In this document: one piece after another, positions 45,308-54,651 of the stretch | How positions within the stretch are numbered: position 1 is the first letter of the stretch | How the letters are laid out: every line of letters starts with the position of its first letter | Origin: Escherichia coli | GTDB lineage: Bacteria; Pseudomonadota; Gammaproteobacteria; Enterobacterales; Enterobacteriaceae | Assembly (NCBI RefSeq): GCF_002854065.1 | Contig: NZ_CP024147.1 | Strand: one strand, 5' to 3' | Length of the DNA stretch: 64,000 nucleotides | Notes under the pieces: model-generated | Seen by the model: only the letters and a program-made list of their open reading frames with translations | Told to the model about the DNA's origin: nothing | The model's database searches: none | Program-made: the position numbers and the translations under genes

Positions 45308-46912
45308 ATGAAAAAAATTGCTATTGTGGGTGCCGGGCCTACGGGGATCTACACCTTATTCTCGCTTCTACAGCAACAAACTCCACTTTCTATTTCTATC
45401 TTCGAGCAGGCTGGCGAGGCCGGTGTCGGGATGCCATACAGTGATGAGGAAAACTCAAAAATGATGCTGGCAAATATTGCCAGTATTGAAATACCACCGA
45501 TTTATTGTACGTATCTCGAATGGCTACAAAAGCAAGAAGCCAGCCATCTCCAGCGTTATGGCGTTAAAAAAGAAACCTTGCACGATCGTCATTTTTTACC
45601 GCGAATTCTGCTGGGCGAATATTTCCGCGATCAATTTTTACGATTAGTAGACCAGGCACGAAAGCAAAAATTTGCAGTGGCTGTTTATGAATCATGCCAG
45701 GTTACCGATCTGCAAATTACAAATGCTGGCGTCATGCTCGCTACAAATCAGGATTTACCCAGCGAGACGTTTGATTTAGCGGTGATTGCCACGGGTCACG
45801 TCTGGCCTGATGAAGAAGAAGCAACCCGAACGAATTTTCCCAGCCCGTGGTCAGGCCTGCTGGAAGCAAAGGTCGATGCGTGTAACGTGGGTATTATGGG
45901 AACATCCTTGAGCGGACTGGATGCGGCAATGGCAGTGGCTATTCAGCATGGTTCGTTCATTGAAGATGATAAACAACACGTCGTTTTTCACCGCGATAAC
46001 GCAAGTGAAAAGCTAAATATCACGTTGATGTCGCGCACGGGTATTTTACCCGAAGCCGATTTCTATTGCCCTATTCCCTACGAGCCCTTACACATCGTCA
46101 CCGATCAGGCATTAAATGCTGAGATTCAAAAAGGCGAATATGGCCTTTTGGATCGGGTATTTAGATTGATAGTAGAGGAAATCAAGTTTGCTGATCCAGA
46201 CTGGAGCCAACGCATAGCCTTAGAGAGCCTGAATGTCGATTCCTTTGCTCAAGCCTGGTTTGCCGAGCGCAAACAACGCGACCCATTTGACTGGGCAGAA
46301 AAAAATCTCCAAGAAGTCGAACACAATAAACGAGAAAAACATACTGTTCCCTGGCGTTATGTCATTCTGCGCCTGCATGAAGCAGTACAGGAAATTGTTC
46401 CACATCTGAATGAACACGACCATAAACGGTTCAGTAAAGGCCTTGCCCGGGTTTTCATAGATAATTATGCCGCAATCCCTTCAGAGTCTATTCGTCGGCT
46501 GCTGGCCTTACGTGAAGCGGGAATCATTCATATTCTCGCTCTCGGTGAAGACTACAAAATGGAAATTAACGAGTCGCGCACCGTCCTGAAAACGGAAGAC
46601 AACAGCTACTCGTTTGACGTTTTTATTGATGCCCGCGGGCAGCGTCCGCTTAAAGTGAAAGATATTCCTTTCCCTGGACTACGCGAACAATTACAGAAAA
46701 CAGGGGATGAAATCCCTGATGTTGGTGAAGATTATACGTTACAGCAACCCGAAGATATTCGTGGGCGCGTAGCGTTCGGCGCGTTGCCCTGGTTAATGCA
46801 CGACCAGCCTTTCGTTCAGGGACTTACGGCATGTGCAGAAATTGGTGAGGCGATGGCTCGGGCGGTCGTAAAACCTGCATCCCGTGCTCGTCGGCGTCTT
46901 TCGTTTGATTAA
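45308..46912 (+). CDS. ydhS: FAD/NAD(P)-binding protein YdhS
   Basis: 534-aa ORF with N-terminal Rossmann motif IAIVGAGPTG. Confidence 0.9.
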   Translation: MKKIAIVGAGPTGIYTLFSLLQQQTPLSISIFEQAGEAGVGMPYSDEENSKMMLANIASIEIPPIYCTYLEWLQKQEASHLQRYGVKKETLHDRHFLPRILLGEYFRDQFLRLVDQARKQKFAVAVYESCQVTDLQITNAGVMLATNQDLPSETFDLAVIATGHVWPDEEEATRTNFPSPWSGLLEAKVDACNVGIMGTSLSGLDAAMAVAIQHGSFIEDDKQHVVFHRDNASEKLNITLMSRTGILPEADFYCPIPYEPLHIVTDQALNAEIQKGEYGLLDRVFRLIVEEIKFADPDWSQRIALESLNVDSFAQAWFAERKQRDPFDWAEKNLQEVEHNKREKHTVPWRYVILRLHEAVQEIVPHLNEHDHKRFSKGLARVFIDNYAAIPSESIRRLLALREAGIIHILALGEDYKMEINESRTVLKTEDNSYSFDVFIDARGQRPLKVKDIPFPGLREQLQKTGDEIPDVGEDYTLQQPEDIRGRVAFGALPWLMHDQPFVQGLTACAEIGEAMARAVVKPASRARRRLSFD

Positions 46913-46923
46913 AGGTAAAGCTA

Positions 46924-47736
46924 TCAGCACTCAACAAACTGATGCTGTTCATTAAGACGATAGCGGACTCCGGCTCGAATATTGTTTTCACCTTCAATGG
47001 CGACGGCGAAACGAACTCTTTCGCCGTCATGATATGCCAGTGCGGCGCTTCCTCCTGGCCCGAGAATAATTGAGTCGACCACGCCCGTGCTCACTACCGT
47101 TGAATTTTCACCGCTGGCAATGATGTGTACATTGTCGCCGCTGTTGACAATTTTGGCGTTTGCGCCAAAGCTGGCGATTTGCACCAGGTCACCATTACTG
47201 GCGACATGACATCGTTCACCCAATGTACAAACGCGTACTCGCATTCCGGTATTCGCAATCCGACTGCTATCTCCAGCGCTGCTTATCCGCGAAGAATTGC
47301 CGGTTACAGCAACCCGTGCGCGCTCACCGGAGCTGCCAATGTGACTGTTAAAGCCGACACTTCCAATCCGCACGCTATAACCCATACTGGCAATTTGTAC
47401 AGCATACCCAGCGGTTGCGATTCTGGCGTTATCCTCACAACAGCCGATGCGAGCATGATCGTCGCTGCGGGCAAACTGACTGCAAAATGCTCTCTCTCCG
47501 GGATCTGTGGCCAGTTTTTGCATAGAGGAAACTTCCTGATGCGCGAAGTTTTCATCCGCCAGCCATTTTTTCCACGCATACTCAACAAGACTCTCCGCCC
47601 AGTCCGTATATCCTTCCTCAATCAGTGCATGATGAATATCAGCATAACTACCGCCGCGCGGGAAATGGCGCAGGAACCAGCGATACATCACCGCTCCGAT
47701 ACGCCATTCTCGCAGGTCTGCTCGTGTAATGATCAT
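46924..47736 (-). CDS. ydhT: YdhT (FhuF-like / unknown function), last gene of ydhYVWXUT
   Basis: 270-aa ORF; recognised by position and sequence. Confidence 0.85.
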   Translation of the reverse strand: MIITRADLREWRIGAVMYRWFLRHFPRGGSYADIHHALIEEGYTDWAESLVEYAWKKWLADENFAHQEVSSMQKLATDPGERAFCSQFARSDDHARIGCCEDNARIATAGYAVQIASMGYSVRIGSVGFNSHIGSSGERARVAVTGNSSRISSAGDSSRIANTGMRVRVCTLGERCHVASNGDLVQIASFGANAKIVNSGDNVHIIASGENSTVVSTGVVDSIILGPGGSAALAYHDGERVRFAVAIEGENNIRAGVRYRLNEQHQFVEC

Positions 47737-47739
47737 TCG

Positions 47740-48525
47740 TTAGTGCCGGTGATAGCCATCGACCATGCTTTTAAAGGTTTCGTGTGGCGTACGCCCCGTG
47801 GTGCAAAGATAAAGATGACCGAAGATAAAAAAGAGGCTTATAAATGCCAGAGCAAAATGCGCCTGCAATAACCAGTATCTTACGCCAGGAAACACATCTC
47901 CCACGGCTTGCGGATAGAGACACAGCAGCCCCGTCAATAGTAACAACGGCAGCAATCCATACATGACACCAACATAGGCAACCTGCTGTAAGGGATTAAA
48001 TTTAGACTGGGTTGTTGCCGGGAAAGGATGTTCTTCCCCCTGCATAATGCCAAACAAATAAAATCGCGTTTGTTTTGCCGCCCGCTCCAGCCAACCCTGA
48101 CGACGAATGCGATAGTGGTGGCCATTACCCCCAACGGCATTGATCAGAACAAAGCCGTGCCAGCATGCCAGTAACAAAAATCCGCAAACTTCATGCACCG
48201 CAACCAGACTTTTAACCGCAGTTGCGCCCACCAGCGCAAAGTGATTTATCAGCCCACTTGCCAGCAACAATACAAAGAGTAACGCATTCGACCAGTGCCA
48301 TAATCTGACCGCTTTGCTGTAAAGATAAATCTTCTCACCATGATCGGTGGCTGATTTCTTCACGCCACGAGCACGAAGCAAGGCGTGCAGCCCCAGCACC
48401 AACCACATCCCAACCAGCAATACTCCGGCAATGATCAACCACACCGGCCAAAATTCGGGAGTGAACTGTGGCACATAGTTCGCTAACTGGCTCTGAAACT
48501 GTTCAGCATGTTGCGACGGGTTCAT
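47740..48525 (-). CDS. ydhU: PhsC/NrfD-like membrane cytochrome b subunit
   Basis: 261-aa polytopic membrane ORF. Confidence 0.88.
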   Translation of the reverse strand: MNPSQHAEQFQSQLANYVPQFTPEFWPVWLIIAGVLLVGMWLVLGLHALLRARGVKKSATDHGEKIYLYSKAVRLWHWSNALLFVLLLASGLINHFALVGATAVKSLVAVHEVCGFLLLACWHGFVLINAVGGNGHHYRIRRQGWLERAAKQTRFYLFGIMQGEEHPFPATTQSKFNPLQQVAYVGVMYGLLPLLLLTGLLCLYPQAVGDVFPGVRYWLLQAHFALAFISLFFIFGHLYLCTTGRTPHETFKSMVDGYHRH

Positions 48526-49190
48526 ACATTTTCCTTTTTAATCAAATGTTGACCGAACCGGCGATACAGATGCGGTTTCCCGGCACCAGGTAGCTGATAT
48601 TGATAGTATTTATTATCCTGCAACCACACCTGAATTTCTGGGCTATCTTCGCGACCAAAGATCAATGCGTGTTCCGGGCAGGCGCTGACGCAAATGGGCG
48701 GAAAGCCTTTTGCCAGTCGGGACTCAGCGCAGAAATCACATTTATCTGCCACTTTAGTGACAGGGTTAAGGTAGCGAACCTGGTACGGACAAGCGCCAAT
48801 GCAATAACTGCAGCCGATGCACTGCGATTTTTCTACCCGCACGATCCCCTGCTCATCACGCCACGACGCCCCTGTCGGGCATACGTCGATGCACGGAGCA
48901 TCTTCGCAGTGCTGACATGACTGGCGAAAAAAGTGATACTGCGTTTCGTTGTCGTTATCGGTGACTGGAATGTGTGCTATCGATAAACGGCTTCCCTGAG
49001 CGGGGACGTGGTTAGTTTTACGGCATGCGCGGGCGCAAATATTACAGCCATTGCACCGTGACTCGTCATGAATCATGGCATACCGAACTTCCTTTTCTTG
49101 CCTCGTGTTCGCTAACAGAGAAGACGCAGAACCAGTAAAAAAGATTACTGTTCCCATCCCCAGAACAAATTTGCGTCGAGTGAAGGACAT
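48522..49190 (-). CDS. ydhX: Tat-exported 4Fe-4S ferredoxin-like protein
   Basis: ORF track 48522..49241; start trimmed to MSFTRRKFVLG twin-arginine signal (222 aa); multiple CxxCxxCxxxCP motifs. Confidence 0.88.
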   Translation of the reverse strand: MSFTRRKFVLGMGTVIFFTGSASSLLANTRQEKEVRYAMIHDESRCNGCNICARACRKTNHVPAQGSRLSIAHIPVTDNDNETQYHFFRQSCQHCEDAPCIDVCPTGASWRDEQGIVRVEKSQCIGCSYCIGACPYQVRYLNPVTKVADKCDFCAESRLAKGFPPICVSACPEHALIFGREDSPEIQVWLQDNKYYQYQLPGAGKPHLYRRFGQHLIKKENV

Positions 49191-49253
49191 CTGATTATCC
49201 CCTAATGCAGTGGCTGCAACTGTCCACCCTATCCATGACATCTCCCTGAAATT

Positions 49254-49901
49254 TCAGGGGTTCTGAAACTGCTCTACCTCGAACCATTCGCATAAGCCAT
49301 AAGCCTTGCCATAGGTCATAAATCGCTCGCTAAACAAGTACAACACCGCCGTCGATGACTCCACCTGCCGTATATCGGCATATTCAGGTGCAACATCCAT
49401 CGCGGCGATCGCGGCTTCAATCTGCGCTTCCTGGAAGTAATATGGCGCTTGCATCAGCATGGCGACTTTGTAAGGACGAGGATACGTCTGGCACTCAAAA
49501 CGAACGGCGTGTGCAATGGCGCGACAAATGTCCTGCTCCACAACTTGCAAAGACATCGCCGCGTAGTTTTCACTCATGGCCTGCGTTGAGTAATAGTAAT
49601 CATCCTGACTTCCCGTCATACAAGCGATATCCGCGTAGTCTCCGTTCTGCTTAATGCTTTCCAGCAAAACTGACAGTTCCTCTTCTGCAACTGAATAGGG
49701 TGGCGAGAGAAACACGGCGCGCGCCACCAGCTGCCCAGCCACAGAATGCTGGCGAATGAACTCTGCCAGGATTTCAGCCGGTTCTGGTTCGGTTACCGTA
49801 TCAACGGGGTGACGCATCCCCTGCAACCATTGCCGCTTCGCCTCGTCAACTTCGCTGACTTTCGCTAACGGCAATTCATCCTGATGGTTCATCTTACCCA
49901 T
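49254..49901 (-). CDS. ydhW: YdhW (unknown function; possible maturation factor for YdhV)
   Basis: 215-aa ORF. Confidence 0.85.
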   Translation of the reverse strand: MGKMNHQDELPLAKVSEVDEAKRQWLQGMRHPVDTVTEPEPAEILAEFIRQHSVAGQLVARAVFLSPPYSVAEEELSVLLESIKQNGDYADIACMTGSQDDYYYSTQAMSENYAAMSLQVVEQDICRAIAHAVRFECQTYPRPYKVAMLMQAPYYFQEAQIEAAIAAMDVAPEYADIRQVESSTAVLYLFSERFMTYGKAYGLCEWFEVEQFQNP

Positions 49902-49904
49902 TCC

Positions 49905-52091
<2,187 letters not shown>

Positions 52092-52504
52092 TCACCGCAT
52101 AACACACATTTCGAGGATTTTTTACTTTCGGTATTTACGGTGGCCATCATCCACGGGCATGCCGTAGTACAGGCGCTACAGCCAATACAACGTTTATGAT
52201 CGACGGTAATACAGCCTTCTTTCTGCTGCCAGGTAATCGCACCAATCGGGCAGACGTTCATGCATTGCGGCTCTTTGCATTGACGGCAGGTGTCCGCGGT
52301 ATAGTTGAGATCGCCATACAGGCCGCCGCCAGAGCCAACCCCGTTGTCGCCAAAGAAATAATTGCGATGGATTTTGATACGGGAGAAGAATGTCCCTACT
52401 GAGCCATCGTTGAAGTTGGTACAAGAGATTTCACAGCGGTGGCAACCCGTGCATCGCGCTCGCTGGGTCACCAGCTCCCCTTTGGGTGTATTTATCAACC
52501 CTAC

Positions 52505-52512
52505 TGTGCCGC
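52505..52512. repeat. left copy of the target-site duplication flanking IS1
   Basis: tgtgccgc immediately 5' of the IS1 left end. Confidence 0.85.
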
Positions 52513-52567
52513 GGTGATGCTGCCAACTTACTGATTTAGTGTATGATGGTGTTTTTGAGGTGCTCCA

Positions 52568-52843
52568 GTGGCTTCTGTTTCTATCAGCTGTCCCTCCTGT
52601 TCAGCTACTGACGGGGTGGTGCGTAACGGCAAAAGCACTGCCGGACATCAGCGCTATCTCTGCTCTCACTGCCGTAAAACATGGCAACTGCAGTTCACTT
52701 ACACCGCTTCTCAACCCGGTACGCACCAGAAAATCATTGATATGGCCATGAATGGCGTTGGATGCCGGGCAACCGCCCGCATTATGGGCGTTGGCCTCAA
52801 CACGATTTTCCGCCATTTAAAAAACTCAGGCCGCAGTCGGTAA
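52568..52843 (+). CDS. insA: IS1 InsA (transposition inhibitor / N-terminal part of transposase)
   Basis: 91-aa [43 protein letters not shown]... Confidence 0.95.
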
Positions 52844-53265
52844 CCTCGCGCATACAGCCGGGCAGTGACGTCATCGTCTGCGCGGAAATGGACGAACAGT
52901 GGGGATACGTCGGGGCTAAATCGCGCCAGCGCTGGCTGTTTTACGCGTATGACAGGCTCCGGAAGACGGTTGTTGCGCACGTATTCGGTGAACGCACTAT
53001 GGCGACGCTGGGGCGTCTTATGAGCCTGCTGTCACCCTTTGACGTGGTGATATGGATGACGGATGGCTGGCCGCTGTATGAATCCCGCCTGAAGGGAAAG
53101 CTGCACGTAATCAGCAAGCGATATACGCAGCGAATTGAGCGGCATAACCTGAATCTGAGGCAGCACCTGGCACGGCTGGGACGGAAGTCGCTGTCGTTCT
53201 CAAAATCGGTGGAGCTGCATGACAAAGTCATCGGGCATTATCTGAACATAAAACACTATCAATAA
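52762..53265 (+). CDS. insB: IS1 InsB (expressed as InsAB' transposase by -1 frameshift at A6C, 52819-52825)
   Basis: 167-aa ORF in -1 frame relative to insA; ttaaaaaac slippery run present. Confidence 0.9.
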
Positions 53266-53280
53266 GTTGGAGTCATTACC

Positions 53281-53288
53281 TGTGCCGC
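53281..53288. repeat. right copy of the target-site duplication flanking IS1
   Basis: tgtgccgc immediately 3' of the IS1 right end. Confidence 0.85.
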
Positions 53289-53631
53289 TATCAATATCTT
53301 CCTGTTTGCAACCCAAAAGTGACAGTAACGCAGGGGCAATTGTTAGACCAGCAAGGCCTTTTCCTGATATACGCAAGAATTCTAATCGCGTTAAGCCAAT
53401 ATCTAATAGTGGACGATCAACCGGGTTCATTTATTTCGCATCCTCTTCGCAAACACAGTGCTGACAATTCAGCAGCCTGATATTAAGCATTCAACTAATA
53501 CGCTGCTGACTCTGTCCTCAACACCAGATATTTTCCCTAACCCGATAGTGTATGAGAAAAGATTTAACGCCGATAAACTAATCCTTTATGGTTAGGAGAA
53601 AAAATAATGTGGTTATTCTGGGCTCTTAACA

Positions 53632-53645
53632 TTGATCATTATCAA
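53632..53645. promoter_or_regulatory. FNR box (TTGAT-N4-ATCAA) upstream of ydhY
   Basis: ttgatcattatcaa is a perfect FNR consensus, ~200 bp upstream of the ydhY start in an AT-rich intergenic region. Confidence 0.65.
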
Positions 53646-53885
53646 TTAAAATTACAAAGCAAGAAATTATAAGTGAACTGATATTTATTATCATTTGAAA
53701 TGAATTTAACTTAAGCGACAATTATTTGTGACGGTCATTGCAGAAAATAAAAATAATATTATCGTTATAAATTAAAACACATATCGAAATTCGTATAATT
53801 TCAGCAGTTGTTATTTAGAATGATTAACTGGACCGCAACTGAAGCAAGAATATCAGGATGAAGCTTATCGCCTCATCCTGAATGG

Positions 53886-54095
53886 TCATTTTACCAGTGC
53901 GTTAATGACGGTTTCCATCGCCTGCTTTTCCAGCTCACTGCGCTGAATGCGTTTATTGGCTAATGCTGTACGTAATACGCCTGCGATAACAATATGCTTT
54001 GGTTCCTGCCCCAGATCGCGCATTTCCAGCACAACTTTACCGACAACTCTGCACATTTCTCGGTACAGTTCATCCTCTTTTGTCCGATTTCCCAT
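53886..54095 (-). CDS. fumD: fumarase D (YdhZ)
   Basis: 69-aa ORF MGNRTKEDELYREMCRVVGKVVLEMRDLGQEPK... Confidence 0.85.
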   Translation of the reverse strand: MGNRTKEDELYREMCRVVGKVVLEMRDLGQEPKHIVIAGVLRTALANKRIQRSELEKQAMETVINALVK

Positions 54096-54409
54096 TCTTT
54101 ATACCTATTTATCATGCCAACTATCAGCATATATCAATCTAACCAATTAAACAAAAATCAAACAAAATCAGACAAATAACGCGATAAATTATTTTAACTG
54201 TAGCAATTGAGCGATGATGTATTTATACACCGGATGAACTTTCGCTTATCCTCACAGTGACAACCCCGGCACCAGACGTTGCGCAAACAGCGAAGTTTTT
54301 GCGTAACCTTTTCCCTGGAACGTTAAATCTTTGATAACAATTTATTGTCTAACAAGTTGTATATTTTTTGAAACGCTGTTTTTGTTTTCCTTTTGGATTA
54401 ATTTCAGCG

Positions 54410-54444
54410 TATAATGCGCGCCAATTGACTCTTGAATGGTTTCA
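54410..54444 (+). promoter_or_regulatory. pykF promoter -10 (tataat, 54410-54415) with Cra/FruR-like operator (tgaatggtttca, 54433-54444)
   Basis: Consensus -10 hexamer; immediately downstream palindrome resembling the Cra half-sites TGAA-N4-TTCA; pykF is a known Cra-repressed gene. Confidence 0.4.
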
Positions 54445-54651
54445 GCACTTTGGACTGTAGAACTCAACGACTCAAAAACAGGCACTCACGTTGGGCTGAG
54501 ACACAAGCACACATTCCTCTGCACGCTTTTTCGATGTCACCTATCCTTAGAGCGAGGCACCACCACTTTCGTAATACCGGATTCGCTTTCCGGCAGTGCG
54601 CCCAGAAAGCAAGTTTCTCCCATCCTTCTCAACTTAAAGACTAAGACTGTC

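Follow-up and report, generated by a model that had tools for sequence, protein, structure and literature searches.

The ydhYVWXUT operon and its genomic setting

A 64-kb stretch of the Escherichia coli genome (contig NZ_CP024147.1; hereafter the window) was analyzed with respect to the minus-strand ydhYVWXUT operon at positions 46924-53430, whose first gene, ydhY, is interrupted by a complete copy of the insertion sequence IS1. The ydhYVWXUT system is an already known anaerobic molybdoenzyme operon that is orphan in substrate. Its position was established from the open reading frame (ORF) listing, a BLAST comparison with 5426 complete E. coli genomes, and the RefSeq annotation of the best matches. 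The operon is bordered by ydhS on one side and by fumD-ynhH-pykF on the other, and the window as a whole corresponds to the E. coli add-rsx-...-ydhQ-valVW-ydhRS-ydh-pykF-lpp-suf region. Synteny of the cluster extends to at least 5404 of the 5426 complete genomes, so that a chance arrangement is of no concern. The following features were located:

46924-47736, minus strand: ydhT, 270 aa, intact; no signal peptide or transmembrane segment
47740-48525, minus strand: ydhU, 261 aa, intact; integral-membrane cytochrome b of the PhsC/FdnI/HyaC type, putatively di-haem
48522-49190, minus strand: ydhX, 222 aa, intact; a longer ORF extends to 49241
49254-49892, minus strand: ydhW, 212 aa, intact; no signal peptide
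49905-52007, minus strand: ydhV, 700 aa, intact; catalytic subunit of the AOR/WOR family
52028-52512, minus strand: 3′ fragment of ydhY (nt 143-627, codons 48-208 plus stop)
52505-52512, no strand: left copy of the target-site duplication, 8-bp direct repeat TGTGCCGC
52513-53280, plus strand: IS1, complete, 768 bp, in opposite orientation to the ydh operon
52568-52843, plus strand: insA, intact ORF within IS1
52762-53265, plus strand: insB′ ORF, intact; A6C frameshift site present
53281-53288, no strand: right copy of the target-site duplication, 8-bp direct repeat TGTGCCGC
53281-53430, minus strand: 5′ fragment of ydhY (nt 1-150, codons 1-50)
53632-53645, no strand: FNR box TTGATcattATCAA, a perfect match, untouched by IS1

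Spacing between the genes is tight, with a 4-bp overlap (ATGA) of ydhX and ydhU and gaps of 3 bp between ydhU and ydhT and of 12 bp between ydhV and ydhW. Each of the five uninterrupted genes (ydhT, ydhU, ydhX, ydhW, and ydhV) matched its own NCBIfam equivalog model over the full length, and these genes are therefore free of secondary decay. Both the coordinates and the domain content obtained from ORFs, Pfam, and NCBIfam agree with a preliminary description of this DNA, which had recognized a six-gene ydhYVWXUT cluster. The description had also called the operon perturbed by IS1, and the complete 768-bp element, its 8-bp duplication, and the broken ydhY reading frame bear this out.

A recent IS1 insertion in ydhY

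The inserted element displays all features that define IS1, i.e. a length of about 768 bp, terminal inverted repeats (GGTGATGCTGCC... and ...GGAGTCATTACC), insA and insB′ with their frameshift site, and a target duplication in the 8-9-bp range. The Pfam domains Zn_ribbon_InsA, HTH_Tnp_IS1, and DDE_Tnp_IS1 were detected within it, and it is the sole IS1 copy in the window. It splits ydhY after codon 50; in silico excision of IS1 together with one copy of TGTGCCGC restored the exact 208-aa YdhY. In E. coli CUWW06 the site is empty, with TGTGCCGC present once, and the excised sequence matched that of CUWW06 at all 6225 bp compared. Another 24.5 kb of flanking sequence without IS elements was 100% identical to both CUWW06 and strain 100416 (window positions 28000-57000 compared with NZ_CP182139.1 and NZ_CM128593.1). 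The insertion in ydhY is recent and strain-specific, as the sequence is otherwise identical to that of CUWW06 with its empty site. A Shigella origin, considered in view of IS1 and a best BLAST match of only 99.4%, was rejected because the flank agrees completely with these two E. coli genomes. In strain 100416, the other identical relative, IS1 lies in the fumD-ydhY intergenic region, so that these strains form a natural near-isogenic series with CUWW06.

The 5′ fragment of ydhY keeps the Tat-like (twin-arginine translocation) signal TRLEFLR, the h-region, the lipobox with Cys41, and nine mature residues. Its truncated product has 76 aa, consisting of residues 1-50 and 26 IS1-encoded residues, and has lost all four Fe-S motifs; an exact-protein look-up of this YdhY′-IS1 fusion matched one short read-assembly contig only. 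Conversely, the 3′ fragment retains all four [4Fe-4S] motifs and lacks the start codon and the signal peptide. It contains a TTG-initiated ORF of 156 aa (52028-52498, minus strand), starting 14 nt from the end of IS1, which corresponds to a signal-less YdhY with four Fe-S motifs. A G-rich stretch directly abuts this TTG, in place of a spaced Shine-Dalgarno sequence.

Upstream of ydhY, TTGATcattATCAA is the sole perfect FNR-box match in the window (0.11 expected by chance). The operon has been listed as a class II FNR-activated operon with a site at -42.5 (PMC3688515). The box and the published distance together place the transcription start near 53596 and give a leader of about 166 nt. As the box agrees with the published class II site and is untouched by IS1, the ydh promoter is intact. 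No RNA family, including molybdenum cofactor (Moco) or other riboswitches, was detected by Rfam (E ≤ 1) in 46500-54500, a region that includes the 166-nt leader; this leader folds slightly better than shuffled sequences (z = -1.9). The ydh operon is also said to be repressed by nitrate via NarL/NarP, like dms, ynf, and frd.

Transcription from the ydh promoter must cross about 770 nt of antisense IS1 before reaching ydhV, and an antisense IS1 RNA of roughly 700 nt that is not translated favours termination by Rho (IS1 polarity). No promoter-like site, outward or hybrid, leading out of IS1 toward ydhV was found at the junction or close to it on the minus strand; the sole promoter match in this vicinity was IS1's own insA promoter. 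We therefore infer that polarity of IS1 separates ydhV-T from the FNR promoter and that the window carries a polar null allele. That the allele is not null appears quite improbable. It would require expression of ydhV-T by read-through or from an internal promoter, with the signal-less YdhY fragment or YdhX taking the place of YdhY. In its favour, the five genes downstream are complete and undamaged, the 156-aa ORF with its four Fe-S motifs begins within a few bases of IS1, and IS1 insertions are reportedly able to create hybrid promoters. The junction without a promoter-like site, the expected Rho termination, and the TTG without a spaced Shine-Dalgarno sequence argue for a null allele, as does the presence of a signal-bearing YdhY in every lineage examined. 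The window provides no direct handle on the substrate; it offers a natural, putatively null mutant together with a sequence-identical wild-type relative, CUWW06.

Recurrent IS1 insertions at ydh in other strains

Three parts of the operon, namely ydhY around codon 50, the ydhY leader/promoter, and the 5′ part of ydhV, are recurrent targets of independent IS1 insertions. An IS1 at practically the same place in ydhY was found in one of the 5426 complete genomes (STEC388). The STEC388 insertion is an independent event: the duplication there is the 9-bp sequence ACTGTGCCG, shifted by one to two bases from TGTGCCGC of the window, and its IS1 has 11 mismatches to the window's copy over 768 positions. 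Members of the C21 group carry an independent IS1 about 10 bp from the insertion in the window, VG12A2 has an IS1 at the same site in reverse orientation, and in ES7 the element lies in the initial codons of ydhY. At least four IS1 events, in both orientations, were counted no farther than about 12 bp from the window's insertion. The leader/promoter region of ydhY is occupied by IS1 in Res13-Lact, MS15047, FDAARGOS_1077, AVS0542, THO-003, and 100416. A second cluster, seen in about nine genomes, comprises four or more positions within the 5′ part of ydhV, and in total about 20 of the 5426 genomes (~0.4%) have IS1 in the ydhY/ydhV region.

This clustering may be caused by target preference or by occasional selection for loss. 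Transposon mutants of ydhU have been found to be fitter under 10 of 12 chemical stresses (PMC5064937). In E. coli MS15047, loss of fumD accompanies the IS1 that lies upstream of ydhY, and ydhV is broken by an internal stop; the locus appears to be a second case of decay, at a more advanced stage.

The catalytic subunit YdhV

YdhV, which lacks a signal peptide, consists of the domains AFOR_N and AFOR_C (PF02730, E = 1.2e-67; PF01314, E = 7e-48) and scored 1373 bits against the NCBIfam model PRK09849. The E. coli protein shares 55-60% identity with its counterparts in Clostridia, Fusobacteria, and Spirochaetes, and 58% with a Cetobacterium homologue. Five cysteines, namely the four ligands of the [4Fe-4S] cluster (Cys307, 310, 314, and 558) and Cys336, do not vary among 15 orthologues with identities as low as 55%.

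The PDB holds no structure of YdhV; the nearest chains are AOR, FOR, BamB, and WOR5, which match mainly the N-terminal domain. The cluster motif of YdhV aligns to those of Pyrococcus furiosus AOR and BamB. With BamB, the alignment of the YdhV profile is unbroken across the cluster motif (residues 8-331); with AOR and FOR, it is limited to the N-terminal domain. Divergence of the central domain precluded a residue-level alignment, and no hidden Markov model (HMM) alignment of this domain to AOR or FOR was obtained. Cys336 lies at +22 from the cluster motif, as compared with +18 for Glu313 of P. furiosus AOR, so that a positional match is suggested by spacing. Its distance from the motif is comparable to that of Cys322 in BamB, where the HMM alignment ends, about five residues out of register.

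YdhV binds bis-Mo-molybdopterin (MPT), as shown by Reschke et al. 2019 according to the papers citing that work, including PMC9103625, and it prefers molybdenum (Mo) over tungsten (W). The literature describes Cys336 as an extra metal ligand common to BamB only, and the second-shell catalytic residues of AOR (Glu313 and His448 of the P. furiosus enzyme) as absent. The YdhV homologue of Cetobacterium somerae had no activity on 46 aldehydes (PMC13328260). Given the Cys336 ligand, the absent second-shell residues, and this negative result, aldehyde oxidation is doubtful, and YdhV probably belongs to a Cys-ligated, BamB-like clade. The assignment of YdhV to the AOR-family pterin enzymes in the preliminary description thus holds for the family (AFOR_N/AFOR_C and the Cys ligands), but its framing as an aldehyde oxidoreductase is probably misleading. 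The RefSeq/PGAP name of ydhV, ‘aldehyde ferredoxin oxidoreductase’, is likewise a family label, used without demonstrated aldehyde activity.

In 2022, the substrate of YdhV was stated to be one that ‘still remains to be identified’ (PMC9103625), and we found no defined substrate or physiological role for the ydh complex in the literature searched, up to June 2026, which accords with the earlier remark that the substrate is not firmly established. Few E. coli molybdoenzyme systems besides ydhYVWXUT still lack a substrate, and knowledge of its reaction would close a gap in what is known of anaerobic respiration in enterobacteria and many gut anaerobes.

A conserved YdhY-YdhV-YdhW core across phyla

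A scan with a YdhV profile over one genome per species yielded 80 loci, 44 of them in the YdhV clade (at least 40% identity); four further loci were added from a look-up of four more homologues. Among the 44 loci of the clade, a YdhY-like gene was present within 1.5 kb of ydhV in 41, nearly always directly upstream, and a YdhW-like gene was found in 38. Taxa with this set include Firmicutes, Spirochaetota, Coriobacteriia, Desulfobacterota, Chloroflexi, and Shewanella. YdhX and YdhU were confined to Enterobacterales and a related group of alphaproteobacterial-type operons, and YdhT to Enterobacterales. The conserved core across phyla is YdhY-YdhV-YdhW (Y-V-W), with YdhX/YdhU as a proteobacterial add-on and YdhT as an addition of the Enterobacterales. 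The analysis of the window thereby offers a cleaner split of the operon, into the Y-V-W core and the lineage-specific X-U and then T.

The genes that recur next to Y-V-W belong to maturation, Tat export, and regulation. The sulfurtransferase gene FdhD directly follows ydhW in five loci, TatC lies nearby in five and TatA in three, and MoeA-like, XdhC, and MoaA genes also adjoin the set elsewhere. The Y-V(-W) genes of five Coriobacteriia loci have membrane regulators of the LuxR type on their flanks. No recurrent catabolic or transport neighbours were found at the YdhV-clade loci. Much of this comparative picture agrees with a classification paper of June 2026. In human-gut protein catalogues, no other AOR/WOR type comes close to the YdhV clade in abundance, a figure that is inflated by E. 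coli sequences.

A few loci deviated from the common layout. Five Coriobacteriia loci encode the YdhW-like domain at the C-terminus of longer proteins (259-459 aa) with low-complexity N-terminal extensions. Two of these, from Eggerthellaceae, have a DMSO-reductase-family enzyme nearby, with its own YdhX-like ferredoxin. Two metagenome-assembled genomes of Desulfobacterota carry a gene for a YdhU-like cytochrome b between ydhY and ydhV, without ydhX and with the twin arginines of YdhY kept; this arrangement is a putative alternative membrane attachment of the Y-V module.

The ferredoxin subunits YdhX and YdhY and their export signals

YdhX contains 16 cysteines in four [4Fe-4S] motifs, and YdhY likewise has four such motifs, with 17 cysteines in its mature part. 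The nearest named family of YdhX is NrfC (TIGR03149, 249 bits, below the cut-off); DsrO, TtrB, and DmsB are also among the nearest, and the HmcB model was matched as well; the TtrB and DsrO scores of both YdhX and YdhY were far below the cut-offs. The N-terminus of YdhX, MSFTRRKFVLG followed by a hydrophobic stretch, is that of a Tat substrate, as had been proposed. The view of YdhX and YdhY as two poly-ferredoxin-like proteins is sound as far as their four [4Fe-4S] motifs each are concerned, but YdhY, with its Tat-like lipoprotein signal, is not a plain ferredoxin.

The motif T-R-L-E-F-L-R of E. coli YdhY departs from the strict twin-arginine consensus; it is a Tat-like R-L variant followed by a hydrophobic h-region and a lipobox (Cys41). 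All 32 complete YdhY N-termini from operons without ydhX have the canonical [ST]RRxFLK, and their h-region often ends in a lipobox. In contrast, the second arginine is replaced in 12 of the 12 ydhX-containing operons, either by Leu (TRLEFLR, Enterobacterales) or by Gln (TRQEFLR). In these operons, mean pairwise identity is 80% for residues 12-41 of YdhY, as compared with 74% for the Fe-S domain, and Cys41 is kept. As the ydhX-containing operons form one clade, the change from R-R to R-L/Q perhaps occurred as a single evolutionary event; the correlation between ydhX and the twin arginines may thus reflect one event and is not to be over-read.

A conceivable but rather unlikely reading is that acquisition of YdhX and YdhU by Proteobacteria was accompanied by a rewiring of export, in which Y-V is targeted in a non-canonical way. 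Such targeting could take the form of (i) co-export of Y-V-X on the signal of YdhX; (ii) a YdhW-dependent single-arginine signal; or (iii) a signal-anchored cytoplasmic module fed by YdhU. If true, it would be a novel form of multi-subunit Tat targeting and topology in an enzyme class widespread in gut bacteria. In any case, the change from R-R to R-L/Q bears on the design of expression and localization in future biochemistry.

The third option amounts to an inverted topology in Proteobacteria, with YdhY anchored by its signal, Y-V in the cytoplasm, and YdhU with periplasmic YdhX relaying electrons across the membrane, like DsrMKJOP or Hmc. Besides the strict association of R-L/R-Q with ydhX (12 of 12 operons with ydhX, 0 of 32 without), the matches of YdhX to the DsrO and HmcB models are in line with this topology. 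In the literature, over-expressed YdhV was purified from the cytoplasm, and an earlier survey predicted cytoplasmic YdhV in some genomes. However, YdhX would be left without a periplasmic catalytic partner, the ancestral arrangement is clearly Tat-exported, and the greater conservation of Cys41 and the signal segment relative to the Fe-S domain fits a processed lipoprotein signal. On balance we consider the inverted topology unlikely and favour export of Y-V.

The membrane subunit YdhU and the accessory proteins YdhW and YdhT

The sole Pfam match of YdhU is PF01292 (cytochrome b561 family, E = 1.5e-30). Among NCBIfam models, it scored 457 bits against the PhsC equivalog PRK15006 (cut-off 204), compared with 26 bits for FdnI and 48 bits for HyaC. 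About five hydrophobic segments were counted, and four histidines located in hydrophobic/transmembrane helices (His77, His111, His223, and His237) are invariant in 10 orthologues, a pattern that fits two haems b. Neither an NrfD domain (PF03916) in Pfam nor an NrfD-type model among the NCBIfam matches was found for YdhU. From the proposed ‘PhsC/NrfD-type’ subunit, the PhsC part is retained (PF01292, PRK15006, and the four His) and the NrfD part is dropped. Together with the Fe-S motifs of YdhX and YdhY, the PF01292/PhsC match of YdhU is consistent with the membrane-associated electron-transfer module around an AOR-family enzyme that the preliminary description had envisaged.

Through PRK15006, RefSeq/PGAP calls ydhU ‘phsC, thiosulfate reductase cytochrome B subunit’, in an operon without PhsA or PhsB. 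Caution is warranted with this name as with that of ydhV; ‘phsC thiosulfate reductase subunit’ and ‘aldehyde ferredoxin oxidoreductase’ are family labels and not functions.

Taken literally, the phsC name would make the complex a sulfur-compound reductase of the thiosulfate, polysulfide, or tetrathionate type. A YdhU score above the PhsC equivalog cut-off, the matches of YdhX and YdhY to TtrB/DsrO models, and the sulfurtransferase FdhD after ydhW in five loci can be cited for it, and altered sulfur-source phenotypes have reportedly been seen. On the other side, Pfam detected no Molybdopterin (PF00384) protein in the operon. PhsA, PsrA, and TtrA, the catalytic subunits of the DMSO-reductase family with molybdenum-bis-molybdopterin guanine dinucleotide (Mo-bis-PGD), are absent, and the catalytic subunit present is of the AOR family. 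The TtrB and DsrO scores fall far short of their cut-offs, FdhD points to cofactor sulfuration and not to a sulfur substrate, and E. coli is classically H2S-negative on thiosulfate. A sulfur-compound reductase is therefore very unlikely.

YdhW is cytoplasmic (no signal peptide) and very acidic (pI 4.4, net charge -18). Structure prediction suggests two tandem winged-helix domains. A role as a TorD/DmsD/NarJ-like chaperone was rejected on fold, the all-helical TorD fold (PF02613) being absent, and a role as a DNA or RNA binder was rejected on charge. The local Pfam scan gave no match for YdhW or YdhT; the newer families YdhW_C and YdhT_N appear in precomputed annotations only and carry no functional information.

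YdhT is predicted to consist of an N-terminal helical domain (residues ~1-77) and a beta-solenoid of 9-residue repeats (~87-270), in a model with a pLDDT of 93. Structural matches were generic (curlin, antifreeze, RTX beta-helices, SufB/D). Its relatives number 588 among 1.84 billion representatives, and some of them bear unrelated N-terminal domains (DUF7666, Macro, PcfJ-like). A role of YdhT as a redox subunit finds no support; it has no cofactor motifs, a generic solenoid fold, and only Gly, Asp, and Tyr as invariant residues. Fold predictions are thus at hand for the two proteins that had been listed as of unknown role, YdhW and YdhT.

A proposed mechanism for the intact enzyme

Based on these results and on what is established for Tat hitch-hiking, PhsABC, Nrf, and Fdn-N, we regard it as fairly probable that the intact operon encodes a periplasm-facing, quinol-linked Mo-bis-MPT reductase. 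In the proposed mechanism, YdhV would obtain its bis-Mo-MPT and [4Fe-4S] cluster in the cytoplasm and pair with the four-cluster ferredoxin YdhY, with YdhW acting as a dedicated escort or assembly factor, or possibly as a third subunit. Signal-less YdhV would then ride out on the Tat-type lipoprotein signal of YdhY, placing Y-V on the periplasmic face. Export of Y-V is proposed because YdhY has R-R in ydhX-less operons, TatC and TatA are neighbours, YdhV and YdhW are signal-less, and YdhX carries TRRKF. NrfC-like YdhX, with its Tat signal and four clusters, would dock on YdhU, and a wire of about nine clusters would link the (mena)quinol pool to Y-V. Electrons would most likely flow from quinol to substrate, so that the complex could serve as a low-priority anaerobic terminal reductase whose acceptor is probably of low potential and not an aldehyde. 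The trans-membrane di-haem YdhU might let the proton-motive force assist, as in PhsABC; by analogy with that enzyme, a subunit of this kind would suit the very low potentials of the family, because the membrane potential assists electron flow. YdhT would be an Enterobacterales-specific beta-solenoid accessory protein.

Given this topology, we lean modestly toward the reductase direction, for the following reasons: (i) YdhU is PhsC-like and not FdnI-like or HyaC-like; (ii) the nearest relatives of YdhX serve reductases; (iii) the operon is FNR-activated, with the box intact here, and reportedly nitrate-repressed; (iv) coriobacterial homologues sit by LuxR-type sensors; and (v) BamB, the only other Cys-ligated member of the family, is a reductase.

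Operation as a dehydrogenase is the main competing direction and appears possible, if rather unlikely. Here, a low-potential donor, either an aldehyde in keeping with the annotation or some other compound, would be oxidized in the periplasm, and electrons would pass from YdhY via YdhX and the haems of YdhU to menaquinone at the cytoplasmic face, in a proton-motive redox loop like that of formate dehydrogenase-N. Di-haem cytochromes of the PF01292 family, FdnI and HyaC among them, work in enzymes that reduce quinones, and YdhU has weak matches to the FdnI and HyaC families. YdhV has AFOR_N/AFOR_C, and according to the literature every characterized member of the AOR/WOR family except BamB oxidizes aldehydes. 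Furthermore, screens with furfural and other chemical stresses picked up ydhU. Yet YdhV is described as having a Cys metal ligand and no AOR second-shell residues, its C. somerae homologue oxidized 0 of 46 aldehydes, YdhU is much closer to PhsC than to FdnI/HyaC, and YdhX is closest to reductase-side ferredoxins.

Several points weigh against a periplasmic reductase with YdhW as its escort. The aldehyde-oxidizing precedent of the family is one of them. The negative aldehyde result is a weak counterweight to it, since the recombinant proteins were single subunits and possibly inactive. A biochemical activity is known for none of the clade members, and the steps of the mechanism, including topology, electron path, and direction, are accordingly conjectural. 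Regulation does not fix the direction either, hydrogen-oxidizing enzymes being nitrate-repressed as well. Tat export of Y-V is not assured in E. coli, because R-L/R-Q replaces R-R. Finally, the predicted fold of YdhW resembles no known Tat chaperone (TorD/DmsD/NarJ, NapD, HyaE), and it is co-occurrence alone that suggests a chaperone role.

Comparison with known systems

The allele in the window resembles ordinary IS1 insertional pseudogenes in its 768-bp element, its duplication within 8-9 bp, and the empty site in a near-identical relative; its one unusual trait is that independent IS1 hits in other strains cluster within the same few bases of ydhY.

With the E. coli systems NrfABCD, DmsABC, and YnfEFGH, the ydh system shares FNR activation, a four-cluster subunit of the NrfC/DmsB type, and a putative Tat dependence and link to quinol. 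These systems differ in having haem-free membrane subunits of the NrfD/DmsC type and in their catalysis by haem c or Mo-bis-PGD. The Salmonella thiosulfate reductase PhsABC has the three-layer plan proposed here for ydh, with a periplasmic catalytic module, a four-cluster ferredoxin, and a PhsC-type di-haem cytochrome b acting as menaquinol oxidase, whereas ydh is without the Mo-bis-PGD subunit PhsA, has two ferredoxin subunits instead of one, and adds cytoplasmic YdhW and YdhT.

The class II benzoyl-CoA reductase subunits BamB-BamC (PDB 4Z3W) also combine an AOR-family pterin subunit, with a Cys metal ligand and without the aldehyde-type second shell, with an Fe-S partner. In contrast to the ydh module, which would be quinol-linked and whose YdhY bears an export signal, BamBC is cytoplasmic, W-dependent, and part of the bifurcating BamBCDEFGHI machinery. 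No Bam(D-I)-like genes were found at the E. coli ydh locus or among the recurrent neighbours elsewhere, so that an association with BamCDEFGHI does not apply.

A close counterpart, of the same family and architecture, is CsWOR41 of C. somerae, a Class V/clade 41 tungsten/molybdenum oxidoreductase (PMC13328260). Its WorL corresponds to YdhV and its WorS, with a Tat-type signal, to YdhY, followed by a YdhW-like gene, and many loci have FdhD, MoeA, and Tat genes close by. E. coli differs in adding YdhX, YdhU, and YdhT, in preferring Mo over W, in the absence of TupABC, and in having R-L instead of R-R in its WorS equivalent, which in the window is also interrupted by IS1. The operon contains the combination by which Class V/clade 41 is defined, i.e. 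WorL together with WorS and one or more further subunits, with a Tat signal and/or transmembrane segment in WorS. We conclude that ydhYVWXUT is the E. coli representative of these membrane-associated AOR/WOR-family enzymes.

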